Below, in pieces: positions 1,100 to 33,467 of a stretch of DNA of 64,000 nt. The position numbers and the translations under genes were made by a program. Under the pieces are notes generated by a model. That model was not told where the DNA came from. It was given only the letters and a program-made list of their open reading frames with translations, and searched no databases. Within the stretch, counting starts at the first letter, position 1; every line of letters starts with the position of its first letter. The stretch lies in assembly GCF_988242995.1 (NCBI RefSeq), contig NZ_OZ547043.1, one strand, 5' to 3'.

Positions 1100-1186
1100 G
1101 CTGAAAAACATAACCCATAAAATGCTAGCTGTACCAGGAACCACCTCCTTAGCCTGTGTAATCTCCCTTACACGGGCTTATTTTTT
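1100..1186 (+). ncRNA. cyaR: CyaR (RyeE) Hfq-dependent sRNA; its last 27 nt are the prophage att core
   Basis: Sequence gctgaaaaacataacccataaaatgctagctgtaccaggaaccacctccttagcctgtgtaatctcccttacacgggcttatttttt matches my recollection of cyaR; ends in hairpin plus T6. Confidence 0.8.
1160..1186. repeat. attL core, 27 bp (aatctcccttacacgggcttatttttt)
   Basis: Exact 27-bp direct repeat of 33441-33467; reverse complement equals the P2 locI core as I remember it (AAAAAATAAGCCCGTGTAAGGGAGATT). Confidence 0.85.
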
Positions 1187-1250
1187 ACGCGTAACACAAT
1201 GAAATAAAAGGATTTATTTCTGGTCACGTCCACACATTGACCACATCGAC

Positions 1251-1274
1251 AAAAAAGCCCCTCGACTGAGGGGC
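1251..1274 (-). terminator. Rho-independent terminator downstream of ogr
   Basis: Hairpin gcccctc-gact-gaggggc preceded on + strand by A6 (U-run on minus strand), 14 bp past ogr stop. Confidence 0.6.
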
Positions 1275-1287
1275 TTCCTGTTTGTAA

Positions 1288-1506
1288 TTACATCCACATA
1301 ATTTGCTGCCCTGACGGCAACGGGTGCGGTCTTACGGCGTGGACTTCTCCCGGCTTCACGATGTATCGCTGTACCGACTCATAAGTGATGAATGTGGCGC
1401 TGCAATTCACGTTCTGACACTGGTGATAACGCTCTTTTGTCGTGTCAGTGATATAGCGGCTTGTACGCGCATGTGCGGCATGCTGGCATAAAGGACAATG
1501 AAACAT
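1288..1506 (-). CDS. ogr: Ogr, zinc-finger late-gene transcription activator
   Basis: 72 aa from ATG 1506; C-x2-C ... C-x4-C motif; matches remembered P2 Ogr (MFHCPLCQHAAHARTSRYI...). ORF-track start at 1569 is a TTG. Confidence 0.9.
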   Translation of the reverse strand: MFHCPLCQHAAHARTSRYITDTTKERYHQCQNVNCSATFITYESVQRYIVKPGEVHAVRPHPLPSGQQIMWM

Positions 1507-1587
1507 CGCGAGCACCTCTTCCGGTTTTGTTGATGGTGCCATTTTAGTTAATTTATCCTTATAAAACAAACAGATAAATAAATTACA

Positions 1588-2751
1588 TCACTCATCATCT
1601 TCTGTTTCGTACTCCACATCAGAAAGCCTGACCTCAAGCTCTAAGGACGTCGTGAAGCCGCTATTATTCAGAAAATGTGTCACCTTAGTGATTGTCCAGT
1701 CCTGCTCGTCTATGACGCGCTTAAAGCCTGATACTTTAACCGGTGTTTCCGTGTAAATATCAGCACGACCGGTAGCCAGGCTGATGGAGAACTCCGCAAC
1801 GCCCCGTTGCAGTTTATCCCACTTCGCCTGAGCGGCACGCATGGCCTGTGCTTTCGTGGCATATACCGTGGTCAGGGCAAAAACGTTGTCAGCCTCACCG
1901 GCCATGTATTCACCTTCGCGCGCTTCCGGTACTTTTGGCGCTTTCTTCTGCCTGACCGGTTTTGCTTTCGGGTGCTCCAGTGCGCGCAGGTGTTTTTCTT
2001 TCTTTTTGCGTTTCAGTTTTACCTTCTGCTTTTGCGGCTTCGGGTCTTTGGTGTGTAACCACTTTGCCGTTACGCCGGTATAGGCTCCACGGTCAGCAAT
2101 CGCAAAATGATGGCGGTCGCCGTCGCTGCGGGTGATGGTGACCTGCGGGATTTTTTTACCGCTGGCCGTCACCCCCTGCCCCGCTTTGAGAAACAGCAGT
2201 TTTCCCATTTTTACCGACACCTCACCGCCGTTGCGTTCTGCAAGACGGGTCAGGAATTTCGCATCAGACTCCTGCGACTGGTCGATGTGCGGGATTTTAA
2301 TTCCGGCCAGTGACGGCGCGACACTGGCTTCCAGCTTGTTACGGGAGGCTATCGCCTCAACAATCGCACCGAGCGTGGTGTCATGCCATGAGCCTTCACG
2401 GCGGGAATTGAGCGTCCCGCGAAAATCTGCACTCCGGGCGCGGATGGTGACCACATCCGGTGCGCCCCGGTGTTCAACCTCATCAACGGTAAATTTCCCT
2501 TTGCATACCAGGGCAAAACCTTTCCAGCCGATATACACCGTCAGAACAGCACCACGAACCGGCAGTTCGACCTGCCCGTCGGCATCGTTCAGTTCAATAT
2601 CAAGCTGGTCAGCCTCAAAGCCCCGGTTATCCGTCAGGGTCATGCTCATCAGACGGTCGCTGATATTGCCGGTAATATCCCTGCTGTCGAGCATCAGCAT
2701 GTAATCCGGCGTCAGCGTACTGCCTGCATCAAATGTCAGCGCATCCAGCAT
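1588..2751 (-). CDS. D: Tail protein gpD
   Basis: 387 aa, P2 gpD length and position next to ogr. Confidence 0.9.
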   Translation of the reverse strand: MLDALTFDAGSTLTPDYMLMLDSRDITGNISDRLMSMTLTDNRGFEADQLDIELNDADGQVELPVRGAVLTVYIGWKGFALVCKGKFTVDEVEHRGAPDVVTIRARSADFRGTLNSRREGSWHDTTLGAIVEAIASRNKLEASVAPSLAGIKIPHIDQSQESDAKFLTRLAERNGGEVSVKMGKLLFLKAGQGVTASGKKIPQVTITRSDGDRHHFAIADRGAYTGVTAKWLHTKDPKPQKQKVKLKRKKKEKHLRALEHPKAKPVRQKKAPKVPEAREGEYMAGEADNVFALTTVYATKAQAMRAAQAKWDKLQRGVAEFSISLATGRADIYTETPVKVSGFKRVIDEQDWTITKVTHFLNNSGFTTSLELEVRLSDVEYETEDDE

Positions 2752-3230
2752 TATCCTGCCCCCGTCATACCCGTGAATCTGGTCGCCATACTGCCGGCCT
2801 TACCGATGAGCGACTCCGCCTGTTTACCAATATCGCCATAAAGCGCGGCCAGTGATTCATCAACGCGGGTGAGAGACAGCGTAAAATCAATTTTCCGGGG
2901 TGTGCCGTCTGCAAAGAAAATACTCCCTGTTTCACTCACCCTGCTGATGACATACATGCCGTAAATCATGCCGGTGCCATCCAGCAACGGCCACGCCCGG
3001 CCTTCCTCTGCCATCAGCCTGAGAGTGGTCATCGTCAGCTTGCCGCCGGTCAGTTCGGGATAAAGCACACCGGCAAGCGTGATGTTTTCCTCGCCAACGC
3101 CGAGAAACTGATAGGCATCCCGTTTACCGATACGGGAATTTGAAGGCCAGCGATAATCAGATTCACGCTGCATGGTCTGGTGTGGCAACGTCTGGCGCAT
3201 AAAAACAAACATACCTAACGCGAGCATCAT
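2751..3230 (-). CDS. U: Tail protein gpU
   Basis: 159 aa, P2 gpU length and position; stop-start overlap with D. Confidence 0.9.
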   Translation of the reverse strand: MMLALGMFVFMRQTLPHQTMQRESDYRWPSNSRIGKRDAYQFLGVGEENITLAGVLYPELTGGKLTMTTLRLMAEEGRAWPLLDGTGMIYGMYVISRVSETGSIFFADGTPRKIDFTLSLTRVDESLAALYGDIGKQAESLIGKAGSMATRFTGMTGAG

Positions 3231-3244
3231 TTTTCGTCACCTCC

Positions 3245-5692
3245 TTAACCGTCATGCATCATGCTGGCACGGGCGCGCGCACGTTTATCCCGCTCGTATT
3301 TTTCGAGCGCATCCTGTAACTGGCGGTCAAGCTGTGTCCCCGGCGCAGTACCGCCCGTCAGGTTGATGTGATATTCGTTTTTACTCTGGTCCACATAAGA
3401 GCGGCCAGCCAGTGCCGTGACTGGCTGATAAGCCTGATAGCCTGCATAAGAGCTGGTCGCCGGAATATAACCACCGGTGCCATACGTGGCGGCATGAGTT
3501 CTGGCGGCGGTCTGGTCAAGTGTGTCTGACTCTTTGTTGATGACCCCGAGCTTTTCCAGTACCCAGTCAATACCGCTGCGCAGTTTGTTGAACGCATTAA
3601 GCGGCAGCATCAACGCGTCAGCCAGTGCCTGCCCGAACATGACGCCCGTATCACGGCAACGGTTCAGGGTGTCCCGGGTGGCTTTGACCGGGGCAATCAG
3701 GTTTTTAAACCACTGCCACGCGGCCTGTAACTTTTCGCCCAGCCAGTCAAACACCGGCTTAAGTGGCGTGAACAGTTCCCCCACCGGCGCAAATGCCGCT
3801 TTCAGCCCTTCAACCACACCGCCAAAGAATGCGCTGACAGGCTCCCAGTATTTACGGATAAGTAACGCCCCGGCGACAATGGCGGCCACCACGGCCACAA
3901 CCGGCCAGCTAATCGCCCCGATGGCCGTCATAACAGCACTGCCAACCGTCGTGAAGATTGCTCCCATTGCGCCTGCTGCCGCGATGATGGCATTGATGCC
4001 GGTGATAACCGGCCAGGCTACGAGGCCAATGGCACCGATGACACCAATCAGCGCCAGTGCACCACCGACAATGATGCCGATGGTTGACGCCAGTGATTTG
4101 TTTTTCTGTATCCAGCCGTCGAGTTTTAACACATACTTTGTGGCCGTCTGCGTGAGCTTACGCAGTGCGCCTTCCTGCTGGTCAAACAGGTCAGTCCCCA
4201 CCGCCTCATAAGCGGACTGAAACTCCTTAAAGTCACCGCCGAGGTTGTCCTGCATGATATTTACCAGCTCGGCGGTCTTCCCGTCTGAGGCTTTAAACGC
4301 AGCGGTCAGTTTGTCCAGCTTTCCAGTTGAGGCGGCAGTCATCAGCACGGCGGCGGCTGAGCTGGCCTCCTCCCCGAAAATAGTTTTCATGTATTCAGCC
4401 TGCTGGGCAGTACCGAGCCGGTTTTTCTCAAAACTGGCCTGCATTTCTTTCAGAATGGTAAATACTGGTCGAGTATTCCCTTTACTGTCTGAGGTTTTCA
4501 CGCCAAGCTCTTTCAGTGCATCCCATGCTTTTCCCGTCGGTGCCTGCAGGCGGCTTAACACGGCACGGCTTCCCGTCCCCGCCATTGAACCGGTAATTTT
4601 TGCATCATGCAGCGCCCCGACCATTGCGGCGGTTTCTTCAATGCTGACACCAGCATTTTTTGCCACAGGTGCGGCATAGGTCAGCGCATCGCTCATGCCA
4701 TCAAAATCGGCGGCGGTTTTGTTCATCGTCATGGAGAGAACATCCCCGATATGAGCGACCTTATCGTTTGAAAGCTGAAAGGCGGATTTCATCCCCATCA
4801 GCAGGGCGGCGTTTTCTTCCATCGTGCGACGGTTCGCCAACGCCATATTCAGCGTGACCGGCGTTGCCGCCTGAATGGCATCAACATCCCCACCGGCTTT
4901 CGCAATAATAATCTGCGCACCGGCTGCATCATCTGCCGAGGCTGCGGTATTGTCGCCGAGCTGGCGCGCCTGCTTGCGTAGTGCAGCCATTTCGGCGGAG
5001 TCTTTTGCCACACCGAGCACAGCCTGCAATTCTGAGTTTTTCTGCGCAAACTCATAACCGGGCATCAGCAACTTAACTCCGGCCATCGTTCCCGCAGCAG
5101 CAATCCCCACACCGGCAGCGCCCACTGAGGCCATATTTCCGGCCAGTTCCTTTCCGGCCTGATAACGCTGTTTTACTGCGTTAAGTTTTGCCTGTTGTGC
5201 ACTGACACGCGCCAGCGCGTCACGCTGACGGTTAAGCTGTGCGGTGGTTTCACTGATACGGTTTTTCAGTCCCTGCTCATCATGTGCAAGATTGCGGGTA
5301 TTAATTCCCACAGCGGCCAGTTCCCGCTGCTGGCGTTTAATGGAATCTGTCAGGCGGTTATATTTCGCCTGTAAGTCCTCCGCCGCACGCTTTGCGGATT
5401 CCAGCACTTTCGCCTGAGCACGGGTCGGACGTTCAGTGTTTTTAAGCTGTGTGGCAAGGGCTTCGGCTTCCTGCCGTGCCTTTTCAAGTGCATGACCAGT
5501 CACGGCAAGCTGTGCGCTGGTCTTGCGAAATCCCTCAATACGGGATGCGTGACCGTTCAGCTCGCGCAGTGATTTTTGTGTTTCCCGGATATCCCCCGAC
5601 AGCGACTTACTCGCTGTGCGGATGGATTTAAACGGGCGGGATGCCTGGTCAACAGCCCTGAGCAATACCTGTAATTTTACATTGTTACTCAT
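3245..5692 (-). CDS. T: Tail tape-measure protein gpT
   Basis: 815 aa, Ala/Gly-rich coiled and hydrophobic segments typical of tape-measure proteins; P2 T position. Confidence 0.9.
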   Translation of the reverse strand: MSNNVKLQVLLRAVDQASRPFKSIRTASKSLSGDIRETQKSLRELNGHASRIEGFRKTSAQLAVTGHALEKARQEAEALATQLKNTERPTRAQAKVLESAKRAAEDLQAKYNRLTDSIKRQQRELAAVGINTRNLAHDEQGLKNRISETTAQLNRQRDALARVSAQQAKLNAVKQRYQAGKELAGNMASVGAAGVGIAAAGTMAGVKLLMPGYEFAQKNSELQAVLGVAKDSAEMAALRKQARQLGDNTAASADDAAGAQIIIAKAGGDVDAIQAATPVTLNMALANRRTMEENAALLMGMKSAFQLSNDKVAHIGDVLSMTMNKTAADFDGMSDALTYAAPVAKNAGVSIEETAAMVGALHDAKITGSMAGTGSRAVLSRLQAPTGKAWDALKELGVKTSDSKGNTRPVFTILKEMQASFEKNRLGTAQQAEYMKTIFGEEASSAAAVLMTAASTGKLDKLTAAFKASDGKTAELVNIMQDNLGGDFKEFQSAYEAVGTDLFDQQEGALRKLTQTATKYVLKLDGWIQKNKSLASTIGIIVGGALALIGVIGAIGLVAWPVITGINAIIAAAGAMGAIFTTVGSAVMTAIGAISWPVVAVVAAIVAGALLIRKYWEPVSAFFGGVVEGLKAAFAPVGELFTPLKPVFDWLGEKLQAAWQWFKNLIAPVKATRDTLNRCRDTGVMFGQALADALMLPLNAFNKLRSGIDWVLEKLGVINKESDTLDQTAARTHAATYGTGGYIPATSSYAGYQAYQPVTALAGRSYVDQSKNEYHINLTGGTAPGTQLDRQLQDALEKYERDKRARARASMMHDG

Positions 5693-6112
5693 TCGTGTTT
5701 CCGCTTCGCCGGAGCGCCTTTTCGCGCCATGTGATGAGTTCGGTCAGGCTCATGGGATACAGTTCTGATGGCGGCCAGTGAAATATCACTGCCACATCCG
5801 CCATCAGGTCATCGACCGAGAGATTTTTCGGGAACGTTACTGCACCGAGTTCGGCGACAAAAAACCGACCACCTTACCGGCCAGCGCCACAAGGTCAGGC
5901 AGTTCCAGCGCGGCGACTTCCTGCTCGGTCAGCATCGGTGCCGTCATGCGCGGCAGCACCTTAATCAGTGCATCGACTTCGGAGTTCGCGACCGCAGCCA
6001 GACTGACACCGCGCAGCGTCCCGGCATTAGGTTTCATCAGCGTGACCTGTTCGATAACCTGCTCACCACGCTTGACCGGATTGTCCAGGGTAATCACATT
6101 TTCTTTGTTCAT
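5685..6112 (-). CDS. E': gpE+E' product of programmed -1 frameshift (slip at TTTTTTG, + coords 5858-5864)
   Basis: Slippery heptamer T TTT TTG near 3' end of E; -1 frame stays open to a TAA at 5685-5687 overlapping the T start, giving 142 aa as in P2 E+E'. Confidence 0.7.
5837..6112 (-). CDS. E: Tail assembly chaperone gpE
   Basis: 91 aa, P2 gpE length and position. Confidence 0.85.
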   Translation of the reverse strand: MNKENVITLDNPVKRGEQVIEQVTLMKPNAGTLRGVSLAAVANSEVDALIKVLPRMTAPMLTEQEVAALELPDLVALAGKVVGFLSPNSVQ

Positions 6113-6168
6113 GGTTTTCTCACTTCTGAATCGGGGTTAACCGGTCAGCCAGGCTGACCGGATGAAAA

Positions 6169-6687
6169 TCACAGGCCGATATTGCGGCGGTGTTGCTCCA
6201 GCCGGTCGACGCCGTTCACCTTCTCAATCATGTTGATGGTGTCGATTTCGACCAGCTCCTTACCGTCCATCGTCAGCCGGAAATAGGTGCAGACCACGGA
6301 GATTTTCGACTCGGTGTCTTCTCCCTGTTTGCCCTCGCCGGTGTCGATTTCTTTCTGACGTCCACGCATGACCACCTCGACGGCCACCGTTTCGCCGGTA
6401 TCGTCGCGCTGGTAAGAGCCTGCAAAACGAATCGGTACGGAATCCACACCGGTTGCGGCGTAAAGCTCCCAGATAACCGAATCCGGGAAGCCACCGAGCG
6501 ACCACTCCATTGACAGCGCATCGTCATCAAGGCCGAGGTCTACCGGTGCGCTGCCGTTCATCCCCGCACCGCGATAGTTTTCGAGCTTACGGGTCAGTTT
6601 TGGTAGCGTGACGGACTTCGCGACGCCCTGATAGCTGTAGCCGTTCAGAAAGACGTTCATTAACTTGAGTTTGCGCGGCATTGCCAT
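6169..6687 (-). CDS. FII: Tail tube protein gpFII
   Basis: 172 aa, P2 FII length and position. Confidence 0.9.
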   Translation of the reverse strand: MAMPRKLKLMNVFLNGYSYQGVAKSVTLPKLTRKLENYRGAGMNGSAPVDLGLDDDALSMEWSLGGFPDSVIWELYAATGVDSVPIRFAGSYQRDDTGETVAVEVVMRGRQKEIDTGEGKQGEDTESKISVVCTYFRLTMDGKELVEIDTINMIEKVNGVDRLEQHRRNIGL

Positions 6688-6699
6688 CGGTCAGGCTCC

Positions 6700-7890
6700 T
6701 TAATTGCTGTTAACCGAGGTGACCAGATTTGCCAGGTATTTATCGGTAATACGCTGGCGCAGGGTCAGGTTTTCAAGAGGAGGCACCGGTGTATAGTCGT
6801 AGTCGATATACAGTTTTCCGGCCTTGAGGGTTTCCGCATCGTTGGATTCTTCGCTGAACCAGCAGGTCGCATCCACGATATAGCCGTTTGTTTTCAGCTC
6901 ACGGAATTTGGCATTGATGCCGTCAACGATGTCGCGAATCAGCGTTGCGGTGATGGGCTTGTCCACCGCCCACATGTGCGCCTCAGCCATCGTGTCGGCC
7001 ATCACCTGCGCGGTGCGGGTGTAGTTTTCAAAGAGGAACAGCGGGTCATCAGAGCAGGTACGGTTACCCCAGAATCGGAAACCGTCGCGGCGAATCAGCG
7101 TAGTGACGCCTGACTCGTTAAGCAGGTCAGCATCGGTGCCGGACTCCTGCAAATCCCAGAATACAGATGCGCTGATGCCGGTAACACCGTTTACCCCGAC
7201 GTTGGACAGCGTTTTATGCCAGCCCTGCTCCTGGTCGATTTTAGCGCGCAGACCCAGCGCACGGGCGGTGGCATACGCGGTGGCGGTGGTACTGGTGACC
7301 GTATCCCATGCGAGGAAATCCGGCCAGATGACCATCAGCTCACGCTGGCTGAAATTCTGGCGGTAGGCTTTCACCTCGGAAATGGTCTTACAGCCCCATG
7401 CGCTGATATATCCGAAAGCGCGCAGCTTCTGACAGACGGATGCCAGTGCAACAGCCACCTCTTTGGTATCCAGTCCCGGCACGCCGAGAATACGCGGTTT
7501 AACACCGGTTACCGACTCCGCCGCCAGCAGGGCTTTCAGTCCGGTGTACTGACCGTTTTCGTCGGTGGTGCCGATGATATTGGAAACGGTCTGCGCAAGT
7601 TTCGTTTCCTCGTCATCACCGGTGCCGTCTTCCACGCGCACGACAACGGTGACCGGTTTTGACTGGTCAGCGATGGCCTGCAACGATGCCGCCAGCGTGC
7701 CTTTTTTACCGGCCTTTGCAATTGCGCTCTGCACATTGGTAATCAGCACCGGTTTATTGAGGGGGAAGGTTTCCGCATCCGCATCGCTGGCCGTGCAGAC
7801 CATGCCGACAATGGCAGTGGATACGGTGGAAATGACGCGGGTGCCGTCGTTAATCTCCAGCACCTGCACGCCGTGATGATAGTCACTCAT
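6700..7890 (-). CDS. FI: Contractile tail sheath protein gpFI
   Basis: 396 aa, P2 FI length and position. Confidence 0.9.
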   Translation of the reverse strand: MSDYHHGVQVLEINDGTRVISTVSTAIVGMVCTASDADAETFPLNKPVLITNVQSAIAKAGKKGTLAASLQAIADQSKPVTVVVRVEDGTGDDEETKLAQTVSNIIGTTDENGQYTGLKALLAAESVTGVKPRILGVPGLDTKEVAVALASVCQKLRAFGYISAWGCKTISEVKAYRQNFSQRELMVIWPDFLAWDTVTSTTATAYATARALGLRAKIDQEQGWHKTLSNVGVNGVTGISASVFWDLQESGTDADLLNESGVTTLIRRDGFRFWGNRTCSDDPLFLFENYTRTAQVMADTMAEAHMWAVDKPITATLIRDIVDGINAKFRELKTNGYIVDATCWFSEESNDAETLKAGKLYIDYDYTPVPPLENLTLRQRITDKYLANLVTSVNSN

Positions 7891-8206
7891 CCGTTTAACT
7901 CCGTGGTTAATGGGTGCAACTATTTTCTGTTGTGCAGAGCATGAGACGCTATTTGCCCTGGATGGTCAGTGGATGAAACAACAGATACAGAAAAGGCGGG
8001 CAATTCGCCCGCATTTCCTAATTTGTACTAACCCAGCTTCCAACTGACAATTTACGTAGCCAAAAAGCTATCAAGTCTGGCAGACTGATTTGTACGAGGT
8101 GTGGATAACCATAATTATGTGCATGCTAACATCACGGTGCATGAGTCAATCGGGTCTATGCCAAAGAATTACGCCTTGATTGACCATAGATTGCTTGCCC
8201 TTGAAT

Positions 8207-8235
8207 TTGACCATTCCAATAAAATGAATTATGAT
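8207..8235 (+). promoter_or_regulatory. Near-consensus sigma70 promoter for cargo gene at 8258
   Basis: -35 TTGACC (8207-8212), 17-bp spacer, -10 TATGAT (8230-8235); followed by GGAGG RBS at 8247-8251. Confidence 0.45.
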
Positions 8236-8257
8236 AATCGTCAAATGGAGGTGCACA

Positions 8258-8902
8258 ATGATCAAACACACCGCAGCAGAAAGGGAAACCAACACTTCAG
8301 CTAAGCTGAATGAATACCAGTTGAACCTTCTGAAAAGAATTAACAACCTCGCTATTTCCCTGATGCCTGAATTTGAAGACAAAAACCAGGCAATTAATGC
8401 TATCACGCTGGATGATAGTTCACTGATGCAATTGCTCTACACCGTTCAACTCGAACAGAAGACTCGTGTCAATGACTACGAACTACGTAAAGTGCGCCGT
8501 CGTCGCGAAAATCTGGAACGATTTTATCGTGGGCTTCAGGAGTTAGGCGGTACGCTAAAGGTAAATGACGTGGTCGATATTCTTGGAATCACCCGCCAGG
8601 CGATCAACATTCGCGTTAAGAAGAACAAGCTTTTAGCATTCAAGCAGAACGGTGATTTTATTTTCCCGAAATTTCAGTTCACAGATAACGGGCTGATTCC
8701 CGGCTTTGAAGACGTAATGGCGGCATTTGACGAGAATACCCATCCAATGCTGAGGTTGGGTGTGCTGAAATCACCAATAGAGGTTAATAGCGAAGGCCTG
8801 AAAAAGACGCCGATTCAAATCATGCAGGACGGCGCTAAAAATAGTGAACTTAGTCTGGCTATCCGTGCCGCTAAACAGTTCGGAAATCATGTATCCAGTT
8901 AA
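8258..8902 (+). CDS. Cargo protein with HTH and C-terminal DUF2384-like (Xre/ParS/MbcA antitoxin-like) region plus a ~110-aa N-terminal extension of unknown function
   Basis: 214 aa from ATG 8258 with GGAGG RBS; HTH-like DILGITRQAINIRVKK; C-terminal HPMLRLGVLKSPIEVNSEGLKKTPIQIM resembles the toxin-binding domain of RES-Xre antitoxins; ~40% GC versus ~52% in flanking phage genes. Confidence 0.55.
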   Translation: MIKHTAAERETNTSAKLNEYQLNLLKRINNLAISLMPEFEDKNQAINAITLDDSSLMQLLYTVQLEQKTRVNDYELRKVRRRRENLERFYRGLQELGGTLKVNDVVDILGITRQAINIRVKKNKLLAFKQNGDFIFPKFQFTDNGLIPGFEDVMAAFDENTHPMLRLGVLKSPIEVNSEGLKKTPIQIMQDGAKNSELSLAIRAAKQFGNHVSS

Positions 8903-8913
8903 TTGTTTTAAAA

Positions 8914-8935
8914 AGAGGGGCTAGCCAGCCCCTCT
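8914..8935. terminator. Terminator hairpin shared by the convergent cargo genes
   Basis: Perfect stem agaggggc / gcccctct with 6-nt loop in the 38-bp gap between the two convergent stop codons; flanked by A/T runs. Confidence 0.5.
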
Positions 8936-8940
8936 TTGGT

Positions 8941-9651
8941 TTACATTGGTTCTGGCGTAATTTCGAATCCAAGCAGTTCTTCGAACATCTCTTCACCTGA
9001 CATCGTTCCTTTGTGCCACCCTTTAGGGAAGATACCTTCGTCATTTTCGATGTAACTGGCATAAGGCACCATCCCCTGAGGGGTATCGGTAAAGGCTGGT
9101 GTACTATCCGGTCGTTCCCAAAAGGCATAACAGCGTTTATAGCGTTTATGCCTTGAGGTATAGGCTATCCCGTCATAGTCACGCCCGAAATGTGTATAAA
9201 GATGTTCCATTAGCCATTGAGTAAAAGTGTAATCCTCGTTCTCTAAGCTATCCAAAGGAATATGTAACAACTCACAGAGCGCTACAACATCGATCACTTT
9301 CACTGGCCTCATGACATCCACAGAGCACATATAGTGTTGTGAAAGTACCGATTCAGGATAAGAAATCGTCCCTTCGAGATGGAGCAAACGCCCATAAGCT
9401 TCTGCCGCCGCCGTTAACGCAGAGTCAGAGGCATACCATACCGCCACACATCCCCCTGGGGGGTTGTATCGCCCACATTCATTTTCCTCAATTGGCGCTC
9501 TGAAGTTGATTGCGCTTTCATACAACGCCCTTTGATGACGCTTCAAAAGACCAGAGCCTGGTTGAATGTCAATCGCCGGAATACGTCCAGATTTATTTTT
9601 TGCAGCAATTCCTTGTGCAACAATATTTTTTTCAAATGTCCATTTGGTCAT
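8941..9651 (-). CDS. RES-domain protein (predicted NAD+-targeting toxin-like effector)
   Basis: 236 aa from ATG 9651 with AAGGAG RBS; motif ECGRYNPPGGCVAVWYASDSALTAAAEAY resembles the RES-domain core (GGRWNPP...YLADS...E in MbcT/ParT-type toxins); candidate Ser in GIAYTSRH; low GC. Confidence 0.6.
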   Translation of the reverse strand: MTKWTFEKNIVAQGIAAKNKSGRIPAIDIQPGSGLLKRHQRALYESAINFRAPIEENECGRYNPPGGCVAVWYASDSALTAAAEAYGRLLHLEGTISYPESVLSQHYMCSVDVMRPVKVIDVVALCELLHIPLDSLENEDYTFTQWLMEHLYTHFGRDYDGIAYTSRHKRYKRCYAFWERPDSTPAFTDTPQGMVPYASYIENDEGIFPKGWHKGTMSGEEMFEELLGFEITPEPM

Positions 9652-22235: not shown

Positions 22236-22408
22236 TGTCAGGAGTCCTGAATAGTGATTAGAGGAGTCACATGTCGGCATCAGTTTCCCGACGATACGCA
22301 TCCTCCGCCATCAGTCCCGGATGGCTTATCACTGACACAACAGCACCTTAGCGAATCGCGGGGCGCGACTCAGTAGCCTTGCCGTGTATTCATCACGGCG
22401 AGGTATTC

Positions 22409-25384: not shown

Positions 25385-25403
25385 GTGCTTTCCCCGCCTC
25401 GCC
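25385..25403. other. cos site (19-nt cohesive-end sequence)
   Basis: gtgctttccccgcctcgcc is the reverse complement of the P2 cohesive end as I remember it (GGCGAGGCGGGGAAAGCAC); lies just downstream of Q where P2 cos sits. Confidence 0.6.
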
Positions 25404-25554: not shown

Positions 25555-27387
25555 TCAAACAGAGCCCTGTTCAAAAACAGTATCAAAATATGGTAGGAGA
25601 GGATAAGCACACAGAAAGAAAATCAGGATGCATGCATATGTCGTTGTTTCATCGTAACAAGCATTAGTATATAAATTACCATGTGCTAATTTATGTCTTA
25701 AGGTTGCCCCACTCTTTCTGTTAAAAAGAACATCGATAGTCAAAACAAGATTTTTAGAAAAGATACTTTCCAAATCATCTCTGCATTTATCTAGAAGCTG
25801 AGAAATACTTGTTGACTCCTCTAATCCCTTATCCAAATATCTAGTAGCATCCTTTCCACTAAGCTCATAATAATAACGAACCATACCTTCCATTTGTGGT
25901 ATTAAAAGATAAGCTGCACTGATGTAATCTCCCTGCCATAATTTGTAAAAGCCCAAATTAAAAATCTCCCTAAACTCCGGCTTGACAATTGGACTAGTTG
26001 TAACCAATTTAACGAATGTTGACAACGTCAAGCCATGTTCTTGAGAAAGTACATAGCGAGCAGGTTCAAAGACACCGTTTACAAAAATCTTATGAGTAAT
26101 CTCGAAATTTCTTAGATATTGATCAATAACAACATCATCACTCATATCTTTTTTATTATCCAACGGCGGGATTGTATATATCTTACGCCCACTCTCATCA
26201 TTAATTTCTGTTCCAACAAAACTAGAGAATAAACTTTTTTCTGATAATCTTAAAACTTGTTCCCTCATGCTTTCAATATTTTCAATCGGTGTTTCACTCA
26301 TTAAAACTTTGAATATATCGGGCAAAGAACGCCCCGTCAGTTTTTTTTCACTTTCAGCAACCAAGTCACTAATATCAATAGAATGGCTTAAAGTGACATA
26401 TTCACTCCTTACTTCTTCTCTCAAATTAGCAAGTTGTTCCTTTAAATCTTCTATCTGTTGGCTATCACCACCGTACTGTCTTAATTCAGAGATAGCTGTT
26501 CTTAACCAAGAGATCTTACCCATATTATCAGGTCGTTCTGTTGCAACTTTAATAGTAATATTTGCAGATGCCAGTTTACATCTCTTGGCACGTTCATACT
26601 CACCATTTTTTTCATAAATAACTGCACTTGTCATATAAAGTGATTTTACAGCATCATAATATTTTTTATCTTTATGCTGCTCAGCCATCTTCTCAGCATT
26701 TTCCGCATACTGCAGATTATACCCATCAAAATCACGCACCATAAACCAAGTCAAATTATTGAAACCTTCAAAGATTAATCTTTCATTTTGAATACTATAA
26801 AGAGAATGAATGGCATTTTTAATCGCCATGTTTCCTTCTGATTTTCTAGGGTAGACCATTTTATTAATGTGCAAAGCCCTAGCAATATAATCACGAGCAA
26901 AAATAAAGCAATTTAAATCACTTTCATCCATGCTTTCGTTTTTTATTATTAGCTTTTCAATTGCTATATTTAGCATTTCAGCATAGGAATCAATTGCTTT
27001 AATTGCCACGTCTTTATTTTTCCGATTATTACACCAAACAACATCATATATTCTTGATAACAAAAATGGATTGGTTATTTTTTGAGAAACATATAAAAGA
27101 CAGTCATTCACCTGCTCATCAAAATCTTCAGGCAATATTGATCTTTTATTACCCCAAATCATTTGGGGTTCAAATGCTGGAGTGTTGTTAACAACTTGCA
27201 AATTGAAACTATATAGCATACCAAAAAGAGATGCTAATTTTTTCTCTTTGGGGTTTTCTGATGACTCAGCAATCCCATCCAGATATTTTTTTATTTTATG
27301 TGCATGAAATGTAACTGGTATATACATAAAAACACTATAATCTAGTGTTTCAAGCTCTTCCCTTGTAAGAACAAAGATATCATTCAT
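25555..27387 (-). CDS. Cargo protein, 611 aa, unknown family; C-terminal R-x4-H (HEPN-like) motif; candidate single-gene defence/abortive-infection effector
   Basis: Large ORF in the P2 tin/old position between cos and A; ~30-35% GC on sampled lines versus ~52% flanks; ATG 27387 with AAGGTG RBS (track start 27492 is a TTG); motif RHKLAH encoded at 25681-25698; no Walker A seen. Confidence 0.6.
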   Translation of the reverse strand: MNDIFVLTREELETLDYSVFMYIPVTFHAHKIKKYLDGIAESSENPKEKKLASLFGMLYSFNLQVVNNTPAFEPQMIWGNKRSILPEDFDEQVNDCLLYVSQKITNPFLLSRIYDVVWCNNRKNKDVAIKAIDSYAEMLNIAIEKLIIKNESMDESDLNCFIFARDYIARALHINKMVYPRKSEGNMAIKNAIHSLYSIQNERLIFEGFNNLTWFMVRDFDGYNLQYAENAEKMAEQHKDKKYYDAVKSLYMTSAVIYEKNGEYERAKRCKLASANITIKVATERPDNMGKISWLRTAISELRQYGGDSQQIEDLKEQLANLREEVRSEYVTLSHSIDISDLVAESEKKLTGRSLPDIFKVLMSETPIENIESMREQVLRLSEKSLFSSFVGTEINDESGRKIYTIPPLDNKKDMSDDVVIDQYLRNFEITHKIFVNGVFEPARYVLSQEHGLTLSTFVKLVTTSPIVKPEFREIFNLGFYKLWQGDYISAAYLLIPQMEGMVRYYYELSGKDATRYLDKGLEESTSISQLLDKCRDDLESIFSKNLVLTIDVLFNRKSGATLRHKLAHGNLYTNACYDETTTYACILIFFLCAYPLLPYFDTVFEQGSV

Positions 27388-27506: not shown

Positions 27507-29789
27507 TTATTGCTCTGAATAACAATAAAACCAACTCCACTCATCAGCGACCGGATACGTAAATTTTTTCCCGTTGTAATTTACGGTCGCTCCACGCGCC
27601 AGCGCCTCCATCTCCCATCGCTGCGGCCTGATACCGTTCTGAGCAAGGTCAACGCGGATACGGGTAATTTGCATTCGTTCCGACCGGGTCAGTCTGGCCG
27701 ATGGCGCTATTTCATGCGGTTTTAGCGGGCTTCCGTTTCTTTGCTGACGATTTAGCGTTCTCAGCCCGTGTTTTAATGCGCCCCTGAGCGCCTTCACGAC
27801 CTCCGGGTCATTCCATTCGATAACACCGTCATTAACCAGATTAAGCACTGCTGCGGCGTGCTCAGAAGGTGTGGGAGCCGGTAACGAAGTATCACCACCA
27901 GTGAGCTTTCCACAGTTATTGACAGGACTCCGAGGCGCGGCGATGCCGCTTTTTAAAGTCAAAGGCTCAACGACCGGAACTTTCGGCACAATGCGCCAGT
28001 CCGTCGTTCTGGTGATATGAATATGACGCGCGCCGAGATGCGGCGCGTAAATGCCGACCACTCTCTCAACTTCTTCCTCGTACTCGTTAACGTCATCCGA
28101 CGGGCTACGGGCAACCCTGACAGTCTGACAATCGCGCGGGACATTTGCCCCACCCTGCGCGCTGATATACAACGCAAAATCACCACTGTCTGCGGCGGCG
28201 CGTGCAGCCTCGACGCGTTCGTCAAACTCATCAGCAATGCTGACGCCGCGAGGCAATTTGCGTAGTTCACGGTAAGCCCCCATTGTCGGCAGGCCAACCG
28301 TTTTAAATTGCGGGATGCGCCACGTTGACGCCCATGCGGTAACAGCCGCGGCAGTGTCATTCAGCGGTCTGCCGGTATCATTATCGAGCTGACCATCCAG
28401 TGCATATCCGTCGATATTTTTTGAGATGTATTTCGCGATATACCCCGCAGCACCGCCCCGGTTAAGGTGTTTCGCCTGAAAACGGTTTCGCGCGGCTCCT
28501 CTTTCGTCGCCATCCTCTTTGAGCGCGTAGCGACGCATGATTTCAATAATCTGGTTACGCTGGCGTGGATTACAAAAAAGCATCATATGCCAGTGCGGCG
28601 TTCCGTCGTGGTGTGGCTCGACGACTCGCAAACCGTAGACCTGTAAATCATTATCCTTGAATGCCGTGCGCATCAGGCTCCAGATACGGCAGAGATAACG
28701 CTGCGCATCCTTTGGATTAAATGCCTCATCGTTCCAGCCGTGATTAAGCTGGACGGTTTTACTTTCGCCTTTTCCGACCTGACGTGTCGGGTGATACTTT
28801 GACGGCGCGGTCAGCGTGATAAACATCCCCACATCACCCTCTGCGGCGGCGTAACGCTCAATACCGGCAATGGTGTTCATCAGCTCCATCCGGCGAATTT
28901 CAGGATTAGAAATACTGCCCATCACCTTACTGATAAGGTCGATGCGCTCGCCGGTTTCCCTGTTTTCAAGGTCACACGATTTAAGAAATTCCAGATTTGC
29001 CTGGCGGCGTGCACGTACATCACGAATGGCATGTTTACTGGCATAAGGAGAACGGTCTTTATTCACCTCCCCGACAGCAATCAGTAACGCCTCATGCCAG
29101 CGCATACGCTGGCCTTTAAGCTGATGAGTCCACCACTCATCGTTAAACAGACGGGCAATGGCAGAATATGCCTGCCTCGTGGTCATCTGTCCTTTACGGT
29201 ATTTTTTCCAGTAGAGAGGGGAAATATTGAAAGCACGTGCAGCGCCAGCAACATGACCATAGAGGTGAGCCTGCGCCTCATCCGTAAACAGCGATTCTTT
29301 CTCGCCATGCGCATCCACCCAGGCATCGCAGAGTTCCTCATACATCATGAAAAGCTGCGATGAGATACGGGCAGCAAATTTTTTCAGCTCCTTGTCATTC
29401 ATTCCCGGCAGGCGCGCATACTGGTCGCGCTCTGCCAGAAACAGCAACGACGCATCGGTGTTCATTTCATGGCGCTGATTCACACGATCAATGCGCGGCC
29501 ATAAACGACGCTGAAAAGTGGATGTGAGGAAATAAAACCCGTGCACTGGGCTTTTATTGCGCCTGATGTAGTCATAGCGTGAAGTAAACAGCGAGCGCAA
29601 AAAGTAAGGCAGGCGGTTAATCGTGGATAAAACACCTTGCACCTGACGCATCTCATCACGTGTAAGAGGTCTTTCGCGCCCGACAGCCTCGCGTGGCGCG
29701 TTCCATGCATAAGCACCGGTAAACATCTTACCGGTGCCTGCGGCAAATGCTGACGGAGGGACAAAACGCCCGGAGGCTTTAACGGCCAT
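27507..29789 (-). CDS. A: Replication initiation protein gpA (rolling-circle nickase)
   Basis: 761 aa from ATG 29789 (MAVKASGRFVPP...), P2 A length; track start 29831 is a TTG. Confidence 0.9.
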   Translation of the reverse strand: MAVKASGRFVPPSAFAAGTGKMFTGAYAWNAPREAVGRERPLTRDEMRQVQGVLSTINRLPYFLRSLFTSRYDYIRRNKSPVHGFYFLTSTFQRRLWPRIDRVNQRHEMNTDASLLFLAERDQYARLPGMNDKELKKFAARISSQLFMMYEELCDAWVDAHGEKESLFTDEAQAHLYGHVAGAARAFNISPLYWKKYRKGQMTTRQAYSAIARLFNDEWWTHQLKGQRMRWHEALLIAVGEVNKDRSPYASKHAIRDVRARRQANLEFLKSCDLENRETGERIDLISKVMGSISNPEIRRMELMNTIAGIERYAAAEGDVGMFITLTAPSKYHPTRQVGKGESKTVQLNHGWNDEAFNPKDAQRYLCRIWSLMRTAFKDNDLQVYGLRVVEPHHDGTPHWHMMLFCNPRQRNQIIEIMRRYALKEDGDERGAARNRFQAKHLNRGGAAGYIAKYISKNIDGYALDGQLDNDTGRPLNDTAAAVTAWASTWRIPQFKTVGLPTMGAYRELRKLPRGVSIADEFDERVEAARAAADSGDFALYISAQGGANVPRDCQTVRVARSPSDDVNEYEEEVERVVGIYAPHLGARHIHITRTTDWRIVPKVPVVEPLTLKSGIAAPRSPVNNCGKLTGGDTSLPAPTPSEHAAAVLNLVNDGVIEWNDPEVVKALRGALKHGLRTLNRQQRNGSPLKPHEIAPSARLTRSERMQITRIRVDLAQNGIRPQRWEMEALARGATVNYNGKKFTYPVADEWSWFYCYSEQ

Positions 29790-30054
29790 ATGAGCCAAAA
29801 GCCTCTGAGCAACGCTTGCTGAGTTGCTCAACCTGCGCGTTTAAATCAGCAAAAGACTTTGCGCTTCCGGTCAGAATATCGTGATGCATCAGGCCGGAAA
29901 CGAGCTGGCTTAATTTCGGGTAATAACCAACCACCGCCAGCCATTCCTGACCGGCGTTTTTACCGCTTTCCGCTCTCTTTTTCTCGTGGAGAATAAACTG
30001 AAAGCTGTCACTGGTAACGACATAACGTTCGCCAATTTCGATACGAATACTCAT
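29779..30054 (-). CDS. Small early protein (P2 orf83-like position)
   Basis: 91-aa ORF between B and A, coupled to neighbours. Confidence 0.6.
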   Translation of the reverse strand: MSIRIEIGERYVVTSDSFQFILHEKKRAESGKNAGQEWLAVVGYYPKLSQLVSGLMHHDILTGSAKSFADLNAQVEQLSKRCSEAFGSYGR

Positions 30055-30275
30055 GCCATTCTCCGGTAATGCTTGTTTTTTGCTTCAAAGACTGACTGAC
30101 AGGAAACACAACGCGTGGCTGACGGATAAGCCGCACGACGGGCAGCAGGTATTGGCGCGTCACACTCTTCGCAAACCAGCGCAGAAACACCGCAATGTTT
30201 CCCCCTTGCCGCGTTAATCTGGCGCTCCAGTAATTCAGCCTGTTGTTCCTGAATAAAATCCACGTTGTCCGGCAT
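30051..30275 (-). CDS. Small C4 zinc-finger protein, DksA/TraR-like
   Basis: 74 aa with C-x2-C ... C-x2-C (CEECDAP ... CVSCQ); P2 early region position. Confidence 0.7.
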   Translation of the reverse strand: MPDNVDFIQEQQAELLERQINAARGKHCGVSALVCEECDAPIPAARRAAYPSATRCVSCQSVFEAKNKHYRRMA

Positions 30276-30277
30276 TA

Positions 30278-30580
30278 TCAGCTCCTTTTATCGTTAAGTT
30301 TCCTGGATACATCAACGCAATAACTGGCAAGTTCTGTCGTTAATTTTGTTAGTTCATCCACTGAGGAAATTTGCTTGTGGAATACAGCGCGTTTAACAAG
30401 TAAATTGACCACATCAGACAGGAGGTTTAATTCATTCTGATAAATCGCGATAACAGATTCAGTTATGTCGCGTTTTTCTTTATCAAGACAAAGTTGAATA
30501 AGAGACAAATCGCCATTTTTCATAACGGCGATTTTTAAGGCGTTATTCAGTAATACAACTGAACGAGAACAGGACATCAA
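30278..30580 (-). CDS. Small early protein (P2 orf81-like position)
   Basis: 100-aa ORF, translationally coupled in the early operon. Confidence 0.55.
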
Positions 30581-30834
30581 AGCACCTCCCCGCGAGACAA
30601 TCCGATATTGTGAAATTTTTCCGACTCCTGACTGAGCAGCTCGACTATCTCCACGCGGGATAACTCCGCCTTTGTGATGTGGCGAATCATGGCGTCAAGA
30701 TGAGAAGAAAAGCGGGTCGCAGCGTCGGCCTGTGCTTCGGTTCTGGCCTGTTGCAGCAGTAATGCGTATATACCGCACTGATTTTCAGAAACTGTATGCA
30801 TGACTTTCTCCAGGCAAAAAGAAGCCCCGCACAA
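30577..30834 (-). CDS. Small early protein (P2 orf80-like position)
   Basis: 85-aa ORF overlapping the downstream start. Confidence 0.55.
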
Positions 30835-30864
30835 TTAAGTGCGTTAAAAACTCTGGTTAATTAC

Positions 30865-31365
30865 TTAATGCAGATATTGCTCTGGTTTTACCGACGTCAG
30901 AATTGTCGGTGCATACTCAAACAGACTGAATAATTCACGTAATGCACGGAATAAAGCATCACGCCAGTAACATGATTCTTCATTAATTCGCCAGTATGGC
31001 TGGTTAAATTCTTTTTCTGTCAGTCGTGCGTGCATAAATAAAGTGCGACGCTGACTGACTGTTAAAAAACTAATATATGCATACTCACTTGCGCCAACCT
31101 GACGGCGTTTTGAGAATGCCCCACGCAATTCATCAATTGCACATACCAGTCGTTCACGTTCGACATCATTCATTTCTTCAAAACGCATCGTTGCGTGACG
31201 CTGTTTTAACTGAGCATGGAAGCAAACCGTTAGCCGTTCGCGTTCCATCATCTGATTATAATAATCACATGTCTCCTGCCAGCGAGGGACGGCAAGATGC
31301 TTACCAATTATCCGGCGCATAGTTGCTGGCTGTTTTTCAACGAGATTGAGCGTCATCACTGTCAT
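30865..31365 (-). CDS. B: Replication protein gpB (helicase loader-like)
   Basis: 166 aa, P2 B length and position. Confidence 0.85.
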   Translation of the reverse strand: MTVMTLNLVEKQPATMRRIIGKHLAVPRWQETCDYYNQMMERERLTVCFHAQLKQRHATMRFEEMNDVERERLVCAIDELRGAFSKRRQVGASEYAYISFLTVSQRRTLFMHARLTEKEFNQPYWRINEESCYWRDALFRALRELFSLFEYAPTILTSVKPEQYLH

Positions 31366-31556
31366 TTCCAGACCCTCCGGCTTTTCAGAAAGGTCAGAGC
31401 CTTTTTTAACGGACTCTGTTTTTTGGTGCGGATAATGATTCCCTTACGCCCCTTACCGTGGGTGATGGTGAAGTCAATCGCCCTGGGGCTTTCGTTACGC
31501 AGTAACTGAGCAATACAACGAGGCTCATTCATACGGTTCTCCTTAACGTGGTTCAC
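31362..31556 (-). CDS. Small early protein (P2 orf78-like position)
   Basis: 64-aa basic ORF between cox and B. Confidence 0.55.
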   Translation of the reverse strand: MNHVKENRMNEPRCIAQLLRNESPRAIDFTITHGKGRKGIIIRTKKQSPLKKALTFLKSRRVWK

Positions 31557-31818
31557 CGAGACCTAACCACATCAACCAGCCGTCACGAATCTCTTTAGGA
31601 CGGCTTTCATAAGCCAGTTTTAGTCCGTTATTCCATGCCGGAAGGTATACCCAATATTCACCTGCACGACCTGAAGCTGATTGTGGATCGGTCATATCAA
31701 TTACTGGCAGCTTTCCTTTATCGATCATCCGACGAACCGCTCCTGTCGATTTTCCTATTAGTTTTGCGAACTCCTGATAAGGAATCGCATCAGTCATGAG
31801 TGTTACTTGCTTGCTCAT
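31543..31818 (-). CDS. cox: Cox (excisionase / repressor of Pc)
   Basis: 91 aa, P2 Cox length; first gene of early operon, divergent from C. Confidence 0.85.
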   Translation of the reverse strand: MSKQVTLMTDAIPYQEFAKLIGKSTGAVRRMIDKGKLPVIDMTDPQSASGRAGEYWVYLPAWNNGLKLAYESRPKEIRDGWLMWLGLGEPR

Positions 31819-31932
31819 GTCGTCCTCCAGCCCTCATGAATTGCGTTTAATGCCTTATAATGCCTTTTAGTGCCCACATCCAAGCACTAAACAATCTACA
31901 TCTAAACTAAATACTATTGAGATCTAAACACC
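31819..31932. promoter_or_regulatory. Pe/Pc divergent promoter-operator switch region between cox and C
   Basis: 114-bp AT-rich intergenic region between divergent cox and C, as in the P2 immunity switch. Confidence 0.5.
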
Positions 31933-32232
31933 ATGTCAAACACGATAAGCGAGAAGATAGTCTTAATGCGAAAATCAGAGTATTTGAGCAGACAACAACT
32001 TGCTGATTTAACAGGGGTTCCGTATGGCACGCTGAGTTACTATGAAAGTGGTCGTTCAACACCTCCAACAGATGTCATGATGAACATCCTGCAGACCCCA
32101 CAATTCACCAAATACACTTTATGGTTCATGACCAATCAGATCGCTCCTGAGTCCGGGCAAATTGCGCCCGCTCTCGCACACTTTGGGCAAAACGAAACAA
32201 CGTCGCCCCACTCCGGTCAAAAGACTGGTTAA
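31933..32232 (+). CDS. C: Immunity repressor C
   Basis: 99 aa, P2 C length; HTH near N-terminus (RQQLADLTGVPYGTLSYYESG). Confidence 0.85.
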   Translation: MSNTISEKIVLMRKSEYLSRQQLADLTGVPYGTLSYYESGRSTPPTDVMMNILQTPQFTKYTLWFMTNQIAPESGQIAPALAHFGQNETTSPHSGQKTG

Positions 32233-32347
32233 CAATTCATCGTGAATATATTCATCACAAGTGCCTACTATTGGTGGCTAAATTTCAGCCACCACGAAAA
32301 AAGCGATTAGTAGTCGCAAAAAAACACACCACTCGGAGGGTTTTCTG

Positions 32348-33361
32348 ATGGCAATCAAAAAACTCGATGATGGTCGATATGAAGTGGACATCCGCCCTAC
32401 TGGACGTAATGGAAAACGCATCCGTAGGAAGTTTGATAAGAAAAGCGAAGCTGTCGCTTTCGAGAAATACACGTTGTACAACCACCACAATAAAGAATGG
32501 CTATCAAAACCAACAGACAAGCGACGTCTGTCGGAGCTGACACAGATCTGGTGGGATTTAAAGGGTAAACACGAAGAGCATGGGAGATCTAATCTTGGAA
32601 AAATTGAAATCTTCACAAAAATAACGAATGACCCATGCGCATTTCAAATTTCGAAATCGCTTATCAGCCAGTACTGCGCCACCCGAAGAAGTCAGGGTAT
32701 TAAACCTTCGAGTATCAATCGTGATTTAACATGTATTAGCGGCATGTTTACAGCCCTGATTGAAGCGGAGTTATTCTTTGGTGAGCACCCTATCAGAGGG
32801 ACAAAAAGGCTTAAGGAGGAAAAACCAGACACAGGCTATCTCACGCAGGAAGAAATTGCCTTACTGCTTGCTGCTCTTGACGGCGACAACAAAAAGATTG
32901 CGATTCTTTGCCTGAGTACTGGAGCACGTTGGGGAGAAGCAGCTCGTTTGAAAGCAGAAAATATTATCCATAACCGCGTCACGTTTGTTAAAACGAAAAC
33001 AAACAAACCACGCACCGTCCCGATCTCAGAGGCTGTTGCCAAAATGATCGCGGATAACAAACGAGGTTTTTTATTCCCTGATGCTGATTACCCTCGCTTC
33101 AGACGAACAATGAAAGCAATAAAACCGGATTTGCCAATGGGGCAAGCCACACATGCACTAAGGCACAGCTTTGCCACTCATTTCATGATTAATGGAGGAA
33201 GTATTATCACGCTACAACGGATACTAGGTCACACACGGATTGAGCAAACTATGGTTTACGCTCATTTTGCGCCAGAGTACCTTCAGGACGCCATTTCTCT
33301 TAATCCGCTAAGAGGTGGTACTGAGGCTGAGAGTGTCCACACAGTGTCCACAGTAGAGTAA
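32348..33361 (+). CDS. int: Tyrosine integrase
   Basis: 337 aa, P2 Int length; catalytic-region motifs (ARWGE, HALRHSFATH, VYAHF); 80 bp from attR. Confidence 0.9.
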   Translation: MAIKKLDDGRYEVDIRPTGRNGKRIRRKFDKKSEAVAFEKYTLYNHHNKEWLSKPTDKRRLSELTQIWWDLKGKHEEHGRSNLGKIEIFTKITNDPCAFQISKSLISQYCATRRSQGIKPSSINRDLTCISGMFTALIEAELFFGEHPIRGTKRLKEEKPDTGYLTQEEIALLLAALDGDNKKIAILCLSTGARWGEAARLKAENIIHNRVTFVKTKTNKPRTVPISEAVAKMIADNKRGFLFPDADYPRFRRTMKAIKPDLPMGQATHALRHSFATHFMINGGSIITLQRILGHTRIEQTMVYAHFAPEYLQDAISLNPLRGGTEAESVHTVSTVE

Positions 33362-33440
33362 CGTTTAAGGGCTTTCAGTGGTAATTTATGCCGCTCAAAC
33401 CCGCATTGTACCGTTGAAAGCCCCTAATGGTGACACCCTA

Positions 33441-33467
33441 AATCTCCCTTACACGGGCTTATTTTTT
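33441..33467. repeat. attR core, 27 bp
   Basis: Exact copy of 1160-1186. Confidence 0.85.

Follow-up and report, generated by a model that had tools for sequence, protein, structure and literature searches.

The 64,000-nucleotide (nt) stretch of contig NZ_OZ547043.1 (NCBI RefSeq assembly GCF_988242995.1) analysed here, hereafter the window, carries at positions 1160-33467 what is very probably a complete prophage of phage P2 proper (genus Peduovirus), of the P2 immunity and integrase type, inserted at locI, the 3' end of the small RNA (sRNA) gene cyaR. We put the probability of this reading at roughly 0.88. A complete P2-like prophage at the cyaR 3' end had been claimed in an original prediction, and every test that we ran supported it; no sequence feature contradicting a complete P2 prophage was found in the element. 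The identity of the phage, its site, the completeness of its coding and cis-acting parts and the purifying selection on its genes were observed directly in the comparisons given below. As a variant of P2 the prophage is probably complete and viable, and we infer that it would yield infectious particles. The prediction is correct in observation and main reading, but the arrangement is already known in kind and ordinary.

The element is bounded by two exact plus-strand copies of the 27-mer AATCTCCCTTACACGGGCTTATTTTTT (Table 1). No third copy with up to three mismatches was found in the window, nor was any found across 100 shuffles. The bases flanking the two copies are unlike, t against a upstream and a against g downstream, and the repeat is therefore exactly 27 bp long. 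In the P2 reference NC_001895, the annotated attP core at 24356-24382, AAAAAATAAGCCCGTGTAAGGGAGATT, is the exact reverse complement of this repeat. Hence both the exact direct repeats around the element and their match to the P2 attachment core, as originally proposed, were borne out.

The repeat was then placed relative to cyaR. Rfam family RF00112 called CyaR at 1098-1183 (score 100.7 bits, gathering score 47), and in an alignment with Escherichia coli K-12 MG1655 the 87-nt gene spans 1100-1186 without a single difference from K-12. The repeat thus stops at the annotated 3' end of cyaR and constitutes the last 27 nt of the gene. In the RNA fold the terminator stem pairs 1151-1161 with 1168-1178 and is followed by the U-tail UUAUUUUUU. 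Of the 5' arm, only the final 2 nt fall inside the repeat, which also takes in the loop, the 3' arm and the U-tail. Because the 5' arm starts at 1151, outside the repeat, the whole hairpin does not lie within it, and the proposal that the repeat equals the CyaR terminator hairpin plus U-tail holds except for most of the 5' arm. It had also been proposed that the attL copy supplies the 3' end of the sRNA in the lysogen. The core does form the cyaR end, although, with the same core in attP and attB, the sequence does not reveal what share of that end came from the phage. Moreover, P2 naming makes the cyaR/ogr junction, with its P arm, attR and the int side, with its P' arm, attL; the difference is one of names only, the proposed attL being the leftmost junction of the window. 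Whichever share of the core is phage-derived, the CyaR sequence is unaltered, with no consequence for the RNA. For annotation purposes, cyaR is intact and undisrupted.

Coordinate 2165238 of MG1655, in the older numbering, is presumably the cyaR 3' end. The same coordinate is given for the P2 integration site in Table 1 of PMC3448106. An explicit statement that P2 attB overlaps cyaR was not found in the literature searched, and the link between attB and cyaR rests on the sequence tests above together with that published coordinate.

Excision was reconstructed in silico. When the phage sides of both junctions were joined, the resulting attP differed at 3 of 232 nt from the record of Peduovirus P22H1. 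Meanwhile, joining the host sides gave yegQ-cyaR-yegR with a single core, which matched empty-site strains such as YDC107 at 99.4% over the full length. As the reconstructed attP is present in P22H1 and the empty attB in YDC107, both products of Int recombination exist naturally. To the right of the element, the window and YDC107 run colinear for 27.5 kb between yegR and metG, with 98.2% identity. The junctions thus read as a site-specific insertion at attB locI, in which the core was duplicated and whose removal would restore a natural attB and a natural attP.

The 32.3-kb element measures 32,281 bp without one core, compared with 33,593 bp for P2. When the translations of all 42 annotated P2 coding sequences were used as tblastn queries against the window, 37 were found full length, ungapped and in P2 order with 89-100% amino acid (aa) identity. 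C, Cox, Ogr, Y, K, W, orf78 and orf80 were 100% identical to their P2 counterparts, and Int showed three substitutions, all conservative (K80R, T102S and E161D). The list of open reading frames (ORFs) likewise contains open frames whose lengths match P2 genes. All essential P2 genes are intact, namely Q, P, O, N, M, L, X, Y, K, R, S, V, W, J, I, H, G, FI, FII, E, E+E', T, U, D, ogr, int, C, cox, B and A; the -1 frameshift site GGTTTTTTG of E+E' is conserved and its 142-aa product is intact. Five genes, orf30, fun(Z), orf91, tin and old, are absent from the element, and the P2 record marks each of them as non-essential; the S-V interval is without orf30. The claim that all canonical P2 genes are present at full length and in P2 order is therefore right for the essential genes, but five non-essential genes are missing, and the H C-terminus and G belong to another module.

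Across 32 ungapped gene pairs between the element and P2 we counted 427 synonymous and 99 non-synonymous differences, the ratio of the non-synonymous to the synonymous proportion (pN/pS) being 0.072. No internal stop was present in these pairs, and no frameshift or truncation was present in the 37 P2 genes, in agreement with the intact reading frames originally proposed. A pN/pS of 0.072 points to a lineage selected for function and is not the mark of decay. At the nucleotide level the backbone follows P2 colinearly with 92-98% identity, and departures from reference P2 are confined to the usual variable modules.

One of these is the host-range module. The tail-fibre protein H has 872 aa, and its resemblance to P2 H is limited to the N-terminal 207 aa by tblastn; G is only 39% identical to P2 G. 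Pfam finds the Phage_tail_fib and Collar domains in H and Caudo_TAP in G. Together, the H C-terminus and G show about 93% nucleotide identity to Peduovirus P24A7b. The tail-fibre tip and its chaperone have been exchanged relative to P2.

The P2 regulatory sites were located by local alignment, feature by feature, to the annotated P2 record (Table 1). The stretch from Pe through O2 is identical to P2 at 40 of 40 positions and Pc at 25 of 26, and the tQ and B terminators are conserved. For the P2 O-operon terminator, pV site, V-operon terminator and pF site, the best alignments fell at unrelated positions and were dismissed as chance. The pV and pF regions were then compared by syntenic region, by eye and against phages D8 and vB_EcoM-569R9 (569R9). 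Both the pV region (the S-V spacer) and the pF region are the D8 version, with 1-3 differences over the stretches compared; the S-V spacer is identical in 569R9, and D8 and 569R9 are likewise without orf30. D8 was recovered from E. coli lysogens, and 569R9 also came from a lysogen. The variant of the integration host factor (IHF) site beside the core is shared by P22H1, a free phage, and by the remnant in K-12. With respect to immunity and integration, the element is of the P2 type as opposed to the WPhi, PhiD145 and 186 types, as seen from C and Cox (100%), Int (99.1%), the core and the arms. Repeats matching the P2-type Int arm consensus tgTGGaCa (PMC3448106) can be read directly in the sequence.

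The reading as a complete and functional P2 prophage has limits, which have to be weighed here. In principle the phage could be disabled by any of the 99 aa differences from P2 or by changes within the diverged H/G module. Six substitutions relative to P2 are clustered in the IHF site beside the core, and the pV and pF activator sites and upstream regions are unlike those of P2. No identical prophage was present in the phage collection or among the RefSeq complete E. coli genomes, the best match reaching 97-98% over 85% of the length. The prophage might accordingly be cryptic or defective despite its open frames, with a missense or regulatory change blocking excision or particle formation, and might be kept for its cargo. 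Viability cannot be shown from sequence, and at least one PseudoFinder pseudogene was reported in 98% of P2-like prophages (preprint 10.64898/2026.02.27.708500). However, zero genes are truncated or frameshifted here and pN/pS is 0.07; the element and P2 have the same cos, ori, operators and Cox boxes; and all the diverged cis elements are also carried by the sequenced phages D8, 569R9, P22H1 and P24A7b. A defective prophage is in our estimation improbable.

An alternative of another kind would do without site-specific insertion and explain the arrangement by a chance repeat, an assembly join or homologous recombination with a K-12-type remnant. Resident remnants are common: the cyaR-ogr junction was found in 1,124 genomes, K-12-type remnants included, and the int-yegR junction, covered over at least 80% of the query, in 807 of 5,426 complete E. 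coli genomes (about 15%). 'Empty' sites too bear a degenerate P-arm relic, described further below. Because of these remnants and the relic, recombination is conceivable at the ogr-side junction. Yet the repeat is exactly the P2 core, with a chance expectation of zero, both junctions are structured as Int-mediated recombination predicts, excision restores a real attB and a real attP, and colinearity of the flanks with other E. coli genomes extends over 27.5 kb. A chance repeat or assembly artefact was rejected on the uniqueness of the repeat, the natural excision products and the colinearity of the flank, and we consider the absence of site-specific insertion hardly credible.

Table 1. Features of the P2 prophage and its attachment sites in the window (fractions are positions identical to P2).
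Feature	Position	Strand	Basis and remarks
cyaR (CyaR/RyeE sRNA gene)	1100-1186	+	Rfam; alignment to K-12 and to empty-site strain YDC107; RNA fold
att core, cyaR side; attR (P.O.B') in P2 convention	1160-1186	+	exact 27-mer
P-arm region	1185-1276	-	alignment to annotated P2 record
IHF site	1185-1218		28/34
Int P-arm repeats	1222-1249		28/28
ogr/F-operon terminator	1254-1276		23/24
ogr, late-gene activator, 72 aa	1288-1506	-	tblastn; 100% identical to P2 Ogr
F operon tail genes	1588-7890	-	tblastn 98-99%, full length
D	1588-2751	-	F operon
U	2751-3230	-	F operon
T	3245-5692	-	F operon
E	5837-6112	-	F operon
E+E'	5685-6112	-	F operon
FII	6169-6687	-	F operon
FI	6700-7890	-	F operon
Cargo locus 1, at P2 fun(Z) position, guanine-cytosine (GC) content ~43%	7891-10345		GC profile, Pfam, terminator scan
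Winged helix-turn-helix (wHTH) 'DNA-binding protein', 214 aa	8258-8902	+	RefSeq annotation of SA186 cassette
Bidirectional terminator hairpin, GC-rich	8912-8937		between convergent genes; terminator scan
RES-domain protein, 236 aa	8941-9651	-	Pfam PF08808, E=1.5e-12; longest ORF to 9699 (252 aa at most)
Host-range module	10346-13542	-	
G, tail-fibre assembly protein	10346-10924	-	
H, tail fibre	10924-13542	-	
Baseplate, tail-completion, lysis and head genes	13553-22301	-	tblastn 93-100%, full length
I, J, W, V	13553-15968	-	tblastn
S, R	16035-16947	-	tblastn
lysC, lysB, lysA, K, Y	16910-18686	-	tblastn
X, L, M, N, O	18690-22235	-	tblastn
Ogr-responsive activator site of divergent pO/pP late promoters	22315-22345		31/31
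P, terminase large subunit, and Q, portal	22409-25215	+	tblastn 99.4-99.7%, full length
P	22409-24181	+	
Q	24181-25215	+	
cos, 19-nt cohesive end GGCGAGGCGGGGAAAGCAC	25385-25403	-	exact, 19/19
Cargo locus 2, one 610-aa protein, ~33% GC	25555-27387	-	Pfam, PADLOC; start per SA186 RefSeq
Early (replication) operon: A, orf83, orf82, orf81, orf80, B, orf78	27507-31532	-	tblastn
A	27507-29789	-	early operon
ori nick region inside A	27911-27951		41/41
B	30865-31365	-	early operon
orf78	31362-31532	-	early operon
Lysis-lysogeny switch	31543-32232		tblastn; alignment to P2 sites
cox	31543-31818	-	
Pe/Pc with O1, O2	31836-31939		
C repressor	31933-32232	+	
int, P2 tyrosine integrase, 337 aa	32348-33361	+	tblastn, 99.1% identity
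P' side of att	33329-33440	-	
Int P' arm	33329-33353		25/27
Cox boxes	33351-33424		74/74
att core, int/yegR side; attL (B.O.P') in P2 convention	33441-33467	+	exact 27-mer

How the element would operate follows from what is established for P2, each step having its counterpart among the parts present. Int together with host IHF would recombine the attP core with the identical attB core, duplicating the core, while cyaR would retain its 87-nt sequence and terminator. In the lysogen the C repressor at O1/O2 would hold the early promoter Pe off. Excision would require Cox, Int and IHF, after which A would nick ori for rolling-circle replication, Ogr would turn on the four late operons, and terminase (P and M) would cut at cos, from which packaging would start. 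The element had been called 'probably inducible', and for this claim we found no support. P2 is a temperate, non-inducible phage, going by the title of Bertani & Bertani 1970 as cited in PMC5009727, and C, Cox and the operators of the element are those of P2. Because P2 is classically non-inducible and the C repressor is identical to that of P2, inducibility is doubtful. By analogy with P2, low-level or rare spontaneous release and derepression by satellite P4 are expected, not SOS induction. Immunity to P2 and helper function for satellite P4 are predicted for the strain.

The prophage carries two cargo loci, as had been claimed: a wHTH/RES gene pair at the fun(Z) position and a DUF7380-DUF4209 gene at the orf91/tin/old position. 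Both are most likely lysogenic-conversion (anti-phage exclusion) genes, a role in phage defence that we infer, and these two candidate anti-phage genes (the RES pair and DUF7380-HEPN) could affect the phage susceptibility of the strain. Since the prophage itself is ordinary, any novelty would lie in the cargo.

In cargo locus 1 the wHTH partner belongs to a conserved Enterobacterales family of about 213 aa annotated as 'DNA-binding protein'. It gave no match in Pfam (E<=10), NCBIfam, PADLOC or PDB sequences. With its AlphaFold2 model (pLDDT 75), the top Foldseek match in the PDB was the winged-HTH protein Rv2175c (probability 0.99, E=0.09), and the RES antitoxin MbcA was a weak match at rank 3 (E=1.3). 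The RES protein had no PDB sequence match and no PADLOC match. The same convergent pair also adjoins the ter operon in the Proteus mirabilis chromosome and lies between an MFS transporter gene and exbBD in an Erwinia chromosome, and because it recurs in these two genera the pair appears to act as a portable two-gene cassette. The cassette was found in 9 complete E. coli genomes and was absent among the 50,697 phage records searched.

Xre-RES/MbcTA systems and aRES proteins resemble cargo locus 1 in the RES domain, the location in a phage accessory hotspot and the DNA-binding neighbour. In Xre-RES operons, however, the antitoxin combines an Xre HTH with a toxin-binding domain, and its gene lies upstream of RES and is co-transcribed, whereas the cargo genes are convergent. 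An Xre-RES type II toxin-antitoxin operon was ruled out on the convergent orientation, the terminator between the genes and a partner without a Pfam antitoxin domain. An aRES defence protein is defined as stand-alone, of 300-600 aa and with RES plus PF18870 (bioRxiv 10.64898/2026.01.28.702374); this candidate was also ruled out, as the RES protein has 236 aa with PF08808 as the only domain found and no PF18870. A search of cargo locus 1 for tandem repeats of the kind seen in a ToxI-like RNA antitoxin returned nothing meaningful. From its sequence the cassette reads as an NAD+-phosphorylase-type pair, and it may constitute an uncharacterised two-gene NAD+-depleting abortive-infection or addiction module. 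In such a module the RES toxin would be controlled by the DNA-binding partner, possibly by way of a terminator-like leader upstream of RES.

The approximately 650 bp between the RES gene and G (9652-10345) contain no clear gene. A 62-aa ORF at 10067-10255 on the minus strand is without a family match. On the same strand, an extended -10 element, TGGTATAAT, at about 9775-9783 is followed by a terminator-like hairpin at 9739-9716, a putative RES leader.

Cargo locus 2 occupies the gpA-gpQ hotspot beside cos, a known site of defence genes. Pfam detected DUF7380 in its protein with E=3.8e-38, and the C-terminal DUF4209 scored 19.9 bits, under the gathering score of 22.3. Against the PADLOC candidate PDC-S39 the match had E=2.9e-84 and covered residues 75-633 of the 645-aa ORF. 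An RHKLAH (Rx4H) motif is read directly from the sequence, and DUF4209 has been placed in the HEPN RNase superfamily (PMC3710099). Phage 569R9 and 54 complete E. coli genomes contain the locus. A literature search on DUF4209 and PDC-S39 retrieved no report of tested anti-phage activity. The gpA-gpQ hotspot of P2 has 18,150 recorded occurrences in E. coli genomes (Rousset et al., PMC9122126), and its cargo has already been catalogued over thousands of P2-like prophages (PMC9122126; bioRxiv 10.64898/2026.02.27.708500).

The host DNA immediately to the right of the int-side core, at 33468-33545, repeats in degenerate form the IHF/P-arm stretch of the phage at 1187-1265, next to the cyaR-side core. 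The two stretches are identical at 52 of 76 positions, an exact CATTGACCACATCGA included, and their local alignment score of 24 compares with 8.1 +/- 1.5 (maximum 16) in 1,000 shuffles. The same relic is present at the empty site of YDC107, at about 1990-2070 of the compared locus. An 'empty' attB site therefore resembles a scar left by an ancient P2-like prophage that was nearly fully deleted, and if this is true the present cyaR 3' flank would itself be such a scar. The joint reading, in which the wHTH/RES pair is an NAD+-depleting module and the cyaR flank an ancient P2-like scar, is put forward tentatively and is doubtful as a whole.

Further from the element, a thiamine pyrophosphate (TPP) riboswitch (Rfam RF00059, 71 bits) lies on the minus strand at 49651-49747, upstream of thiM-thiD according to the YDC107 annotation. 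Colinearity with YDC107 stops past metG, in the window interval 60994-64000. The first of the two large DUF4132 genes of YDC107 is apparently missing from the window and the homologue of the second follows directly; 60792-60960 matches the start of the second gene at 93%.

P2 lysogeny at the cyaR site is textbook knowledge and carries little weight as a discovery, and with the int-yegR junction in about 15% of complete E. coli genomes the arrangement is ordinary. Compared with P2 itself (NC_001895 / AF063097), the element shares the gene order, C, Cox, Ogr, the operators, the att core, cos and ori. It differs in the absence of orf30, fun(Z), orf91, tin and old, in the H/G module, in its two other cargo loci and in the changes to the IHF site. 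Sequenced P2-like coliphages (Peduovirus P22H1, P24A7b and P24E6b, together with D8, 12W, 10W and 569R9) show 96-98% nucleotide identity over about 85% of the late region. Individual modules recur among them: P22H1 has the same attP, D8 and 569R9 have the orf30-less S-V junction and the pF variant, 569R9 has the DUF4209/DUF7380 gene, and P24A7b has the tail-fibre tip and G. No single phage record unites all the modules, and the identical combination was found neither in the phage records nor in the RefSeq complete genomes examined. Among complete RefSeq E. coli genomes, no junction query or cargo locus had a 100% match, the best being 99.4-99.7%.

The prophage of E. coli SA186 (NZ_CP022730) is colinear with window positions 1192-31532, that is, over 30.3 kb from ogr through orf78 at 97.6% identity, both cargo loci included. 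In contrast, it is inserted between pflA and pflB and carries another cox/C/int module and another attachment site. As an SA186-type backbone is combined here with a different int/C/cox set, the element is a mosaic of that backbone and a P2 immunity/integration module, a clear case of immunity/integration module exchange between P2-like phages. The cryptic prophage PR-X of K-12 (ogrK plus the yegZ pseudogene), whose annotation begins 18 nt before the cyaR end, offers the other close comparison at this site. Comparison of the cyaR region bore out the claim that K-12 has only an ogrK/yegZ remnant there. The cyaR-core-P arm-ogr junction is the same in both strains, nearly base for base, but PR-X keeps only about 630 bp (ogrK and a D fragment), whereas the whole phage is present in the window.

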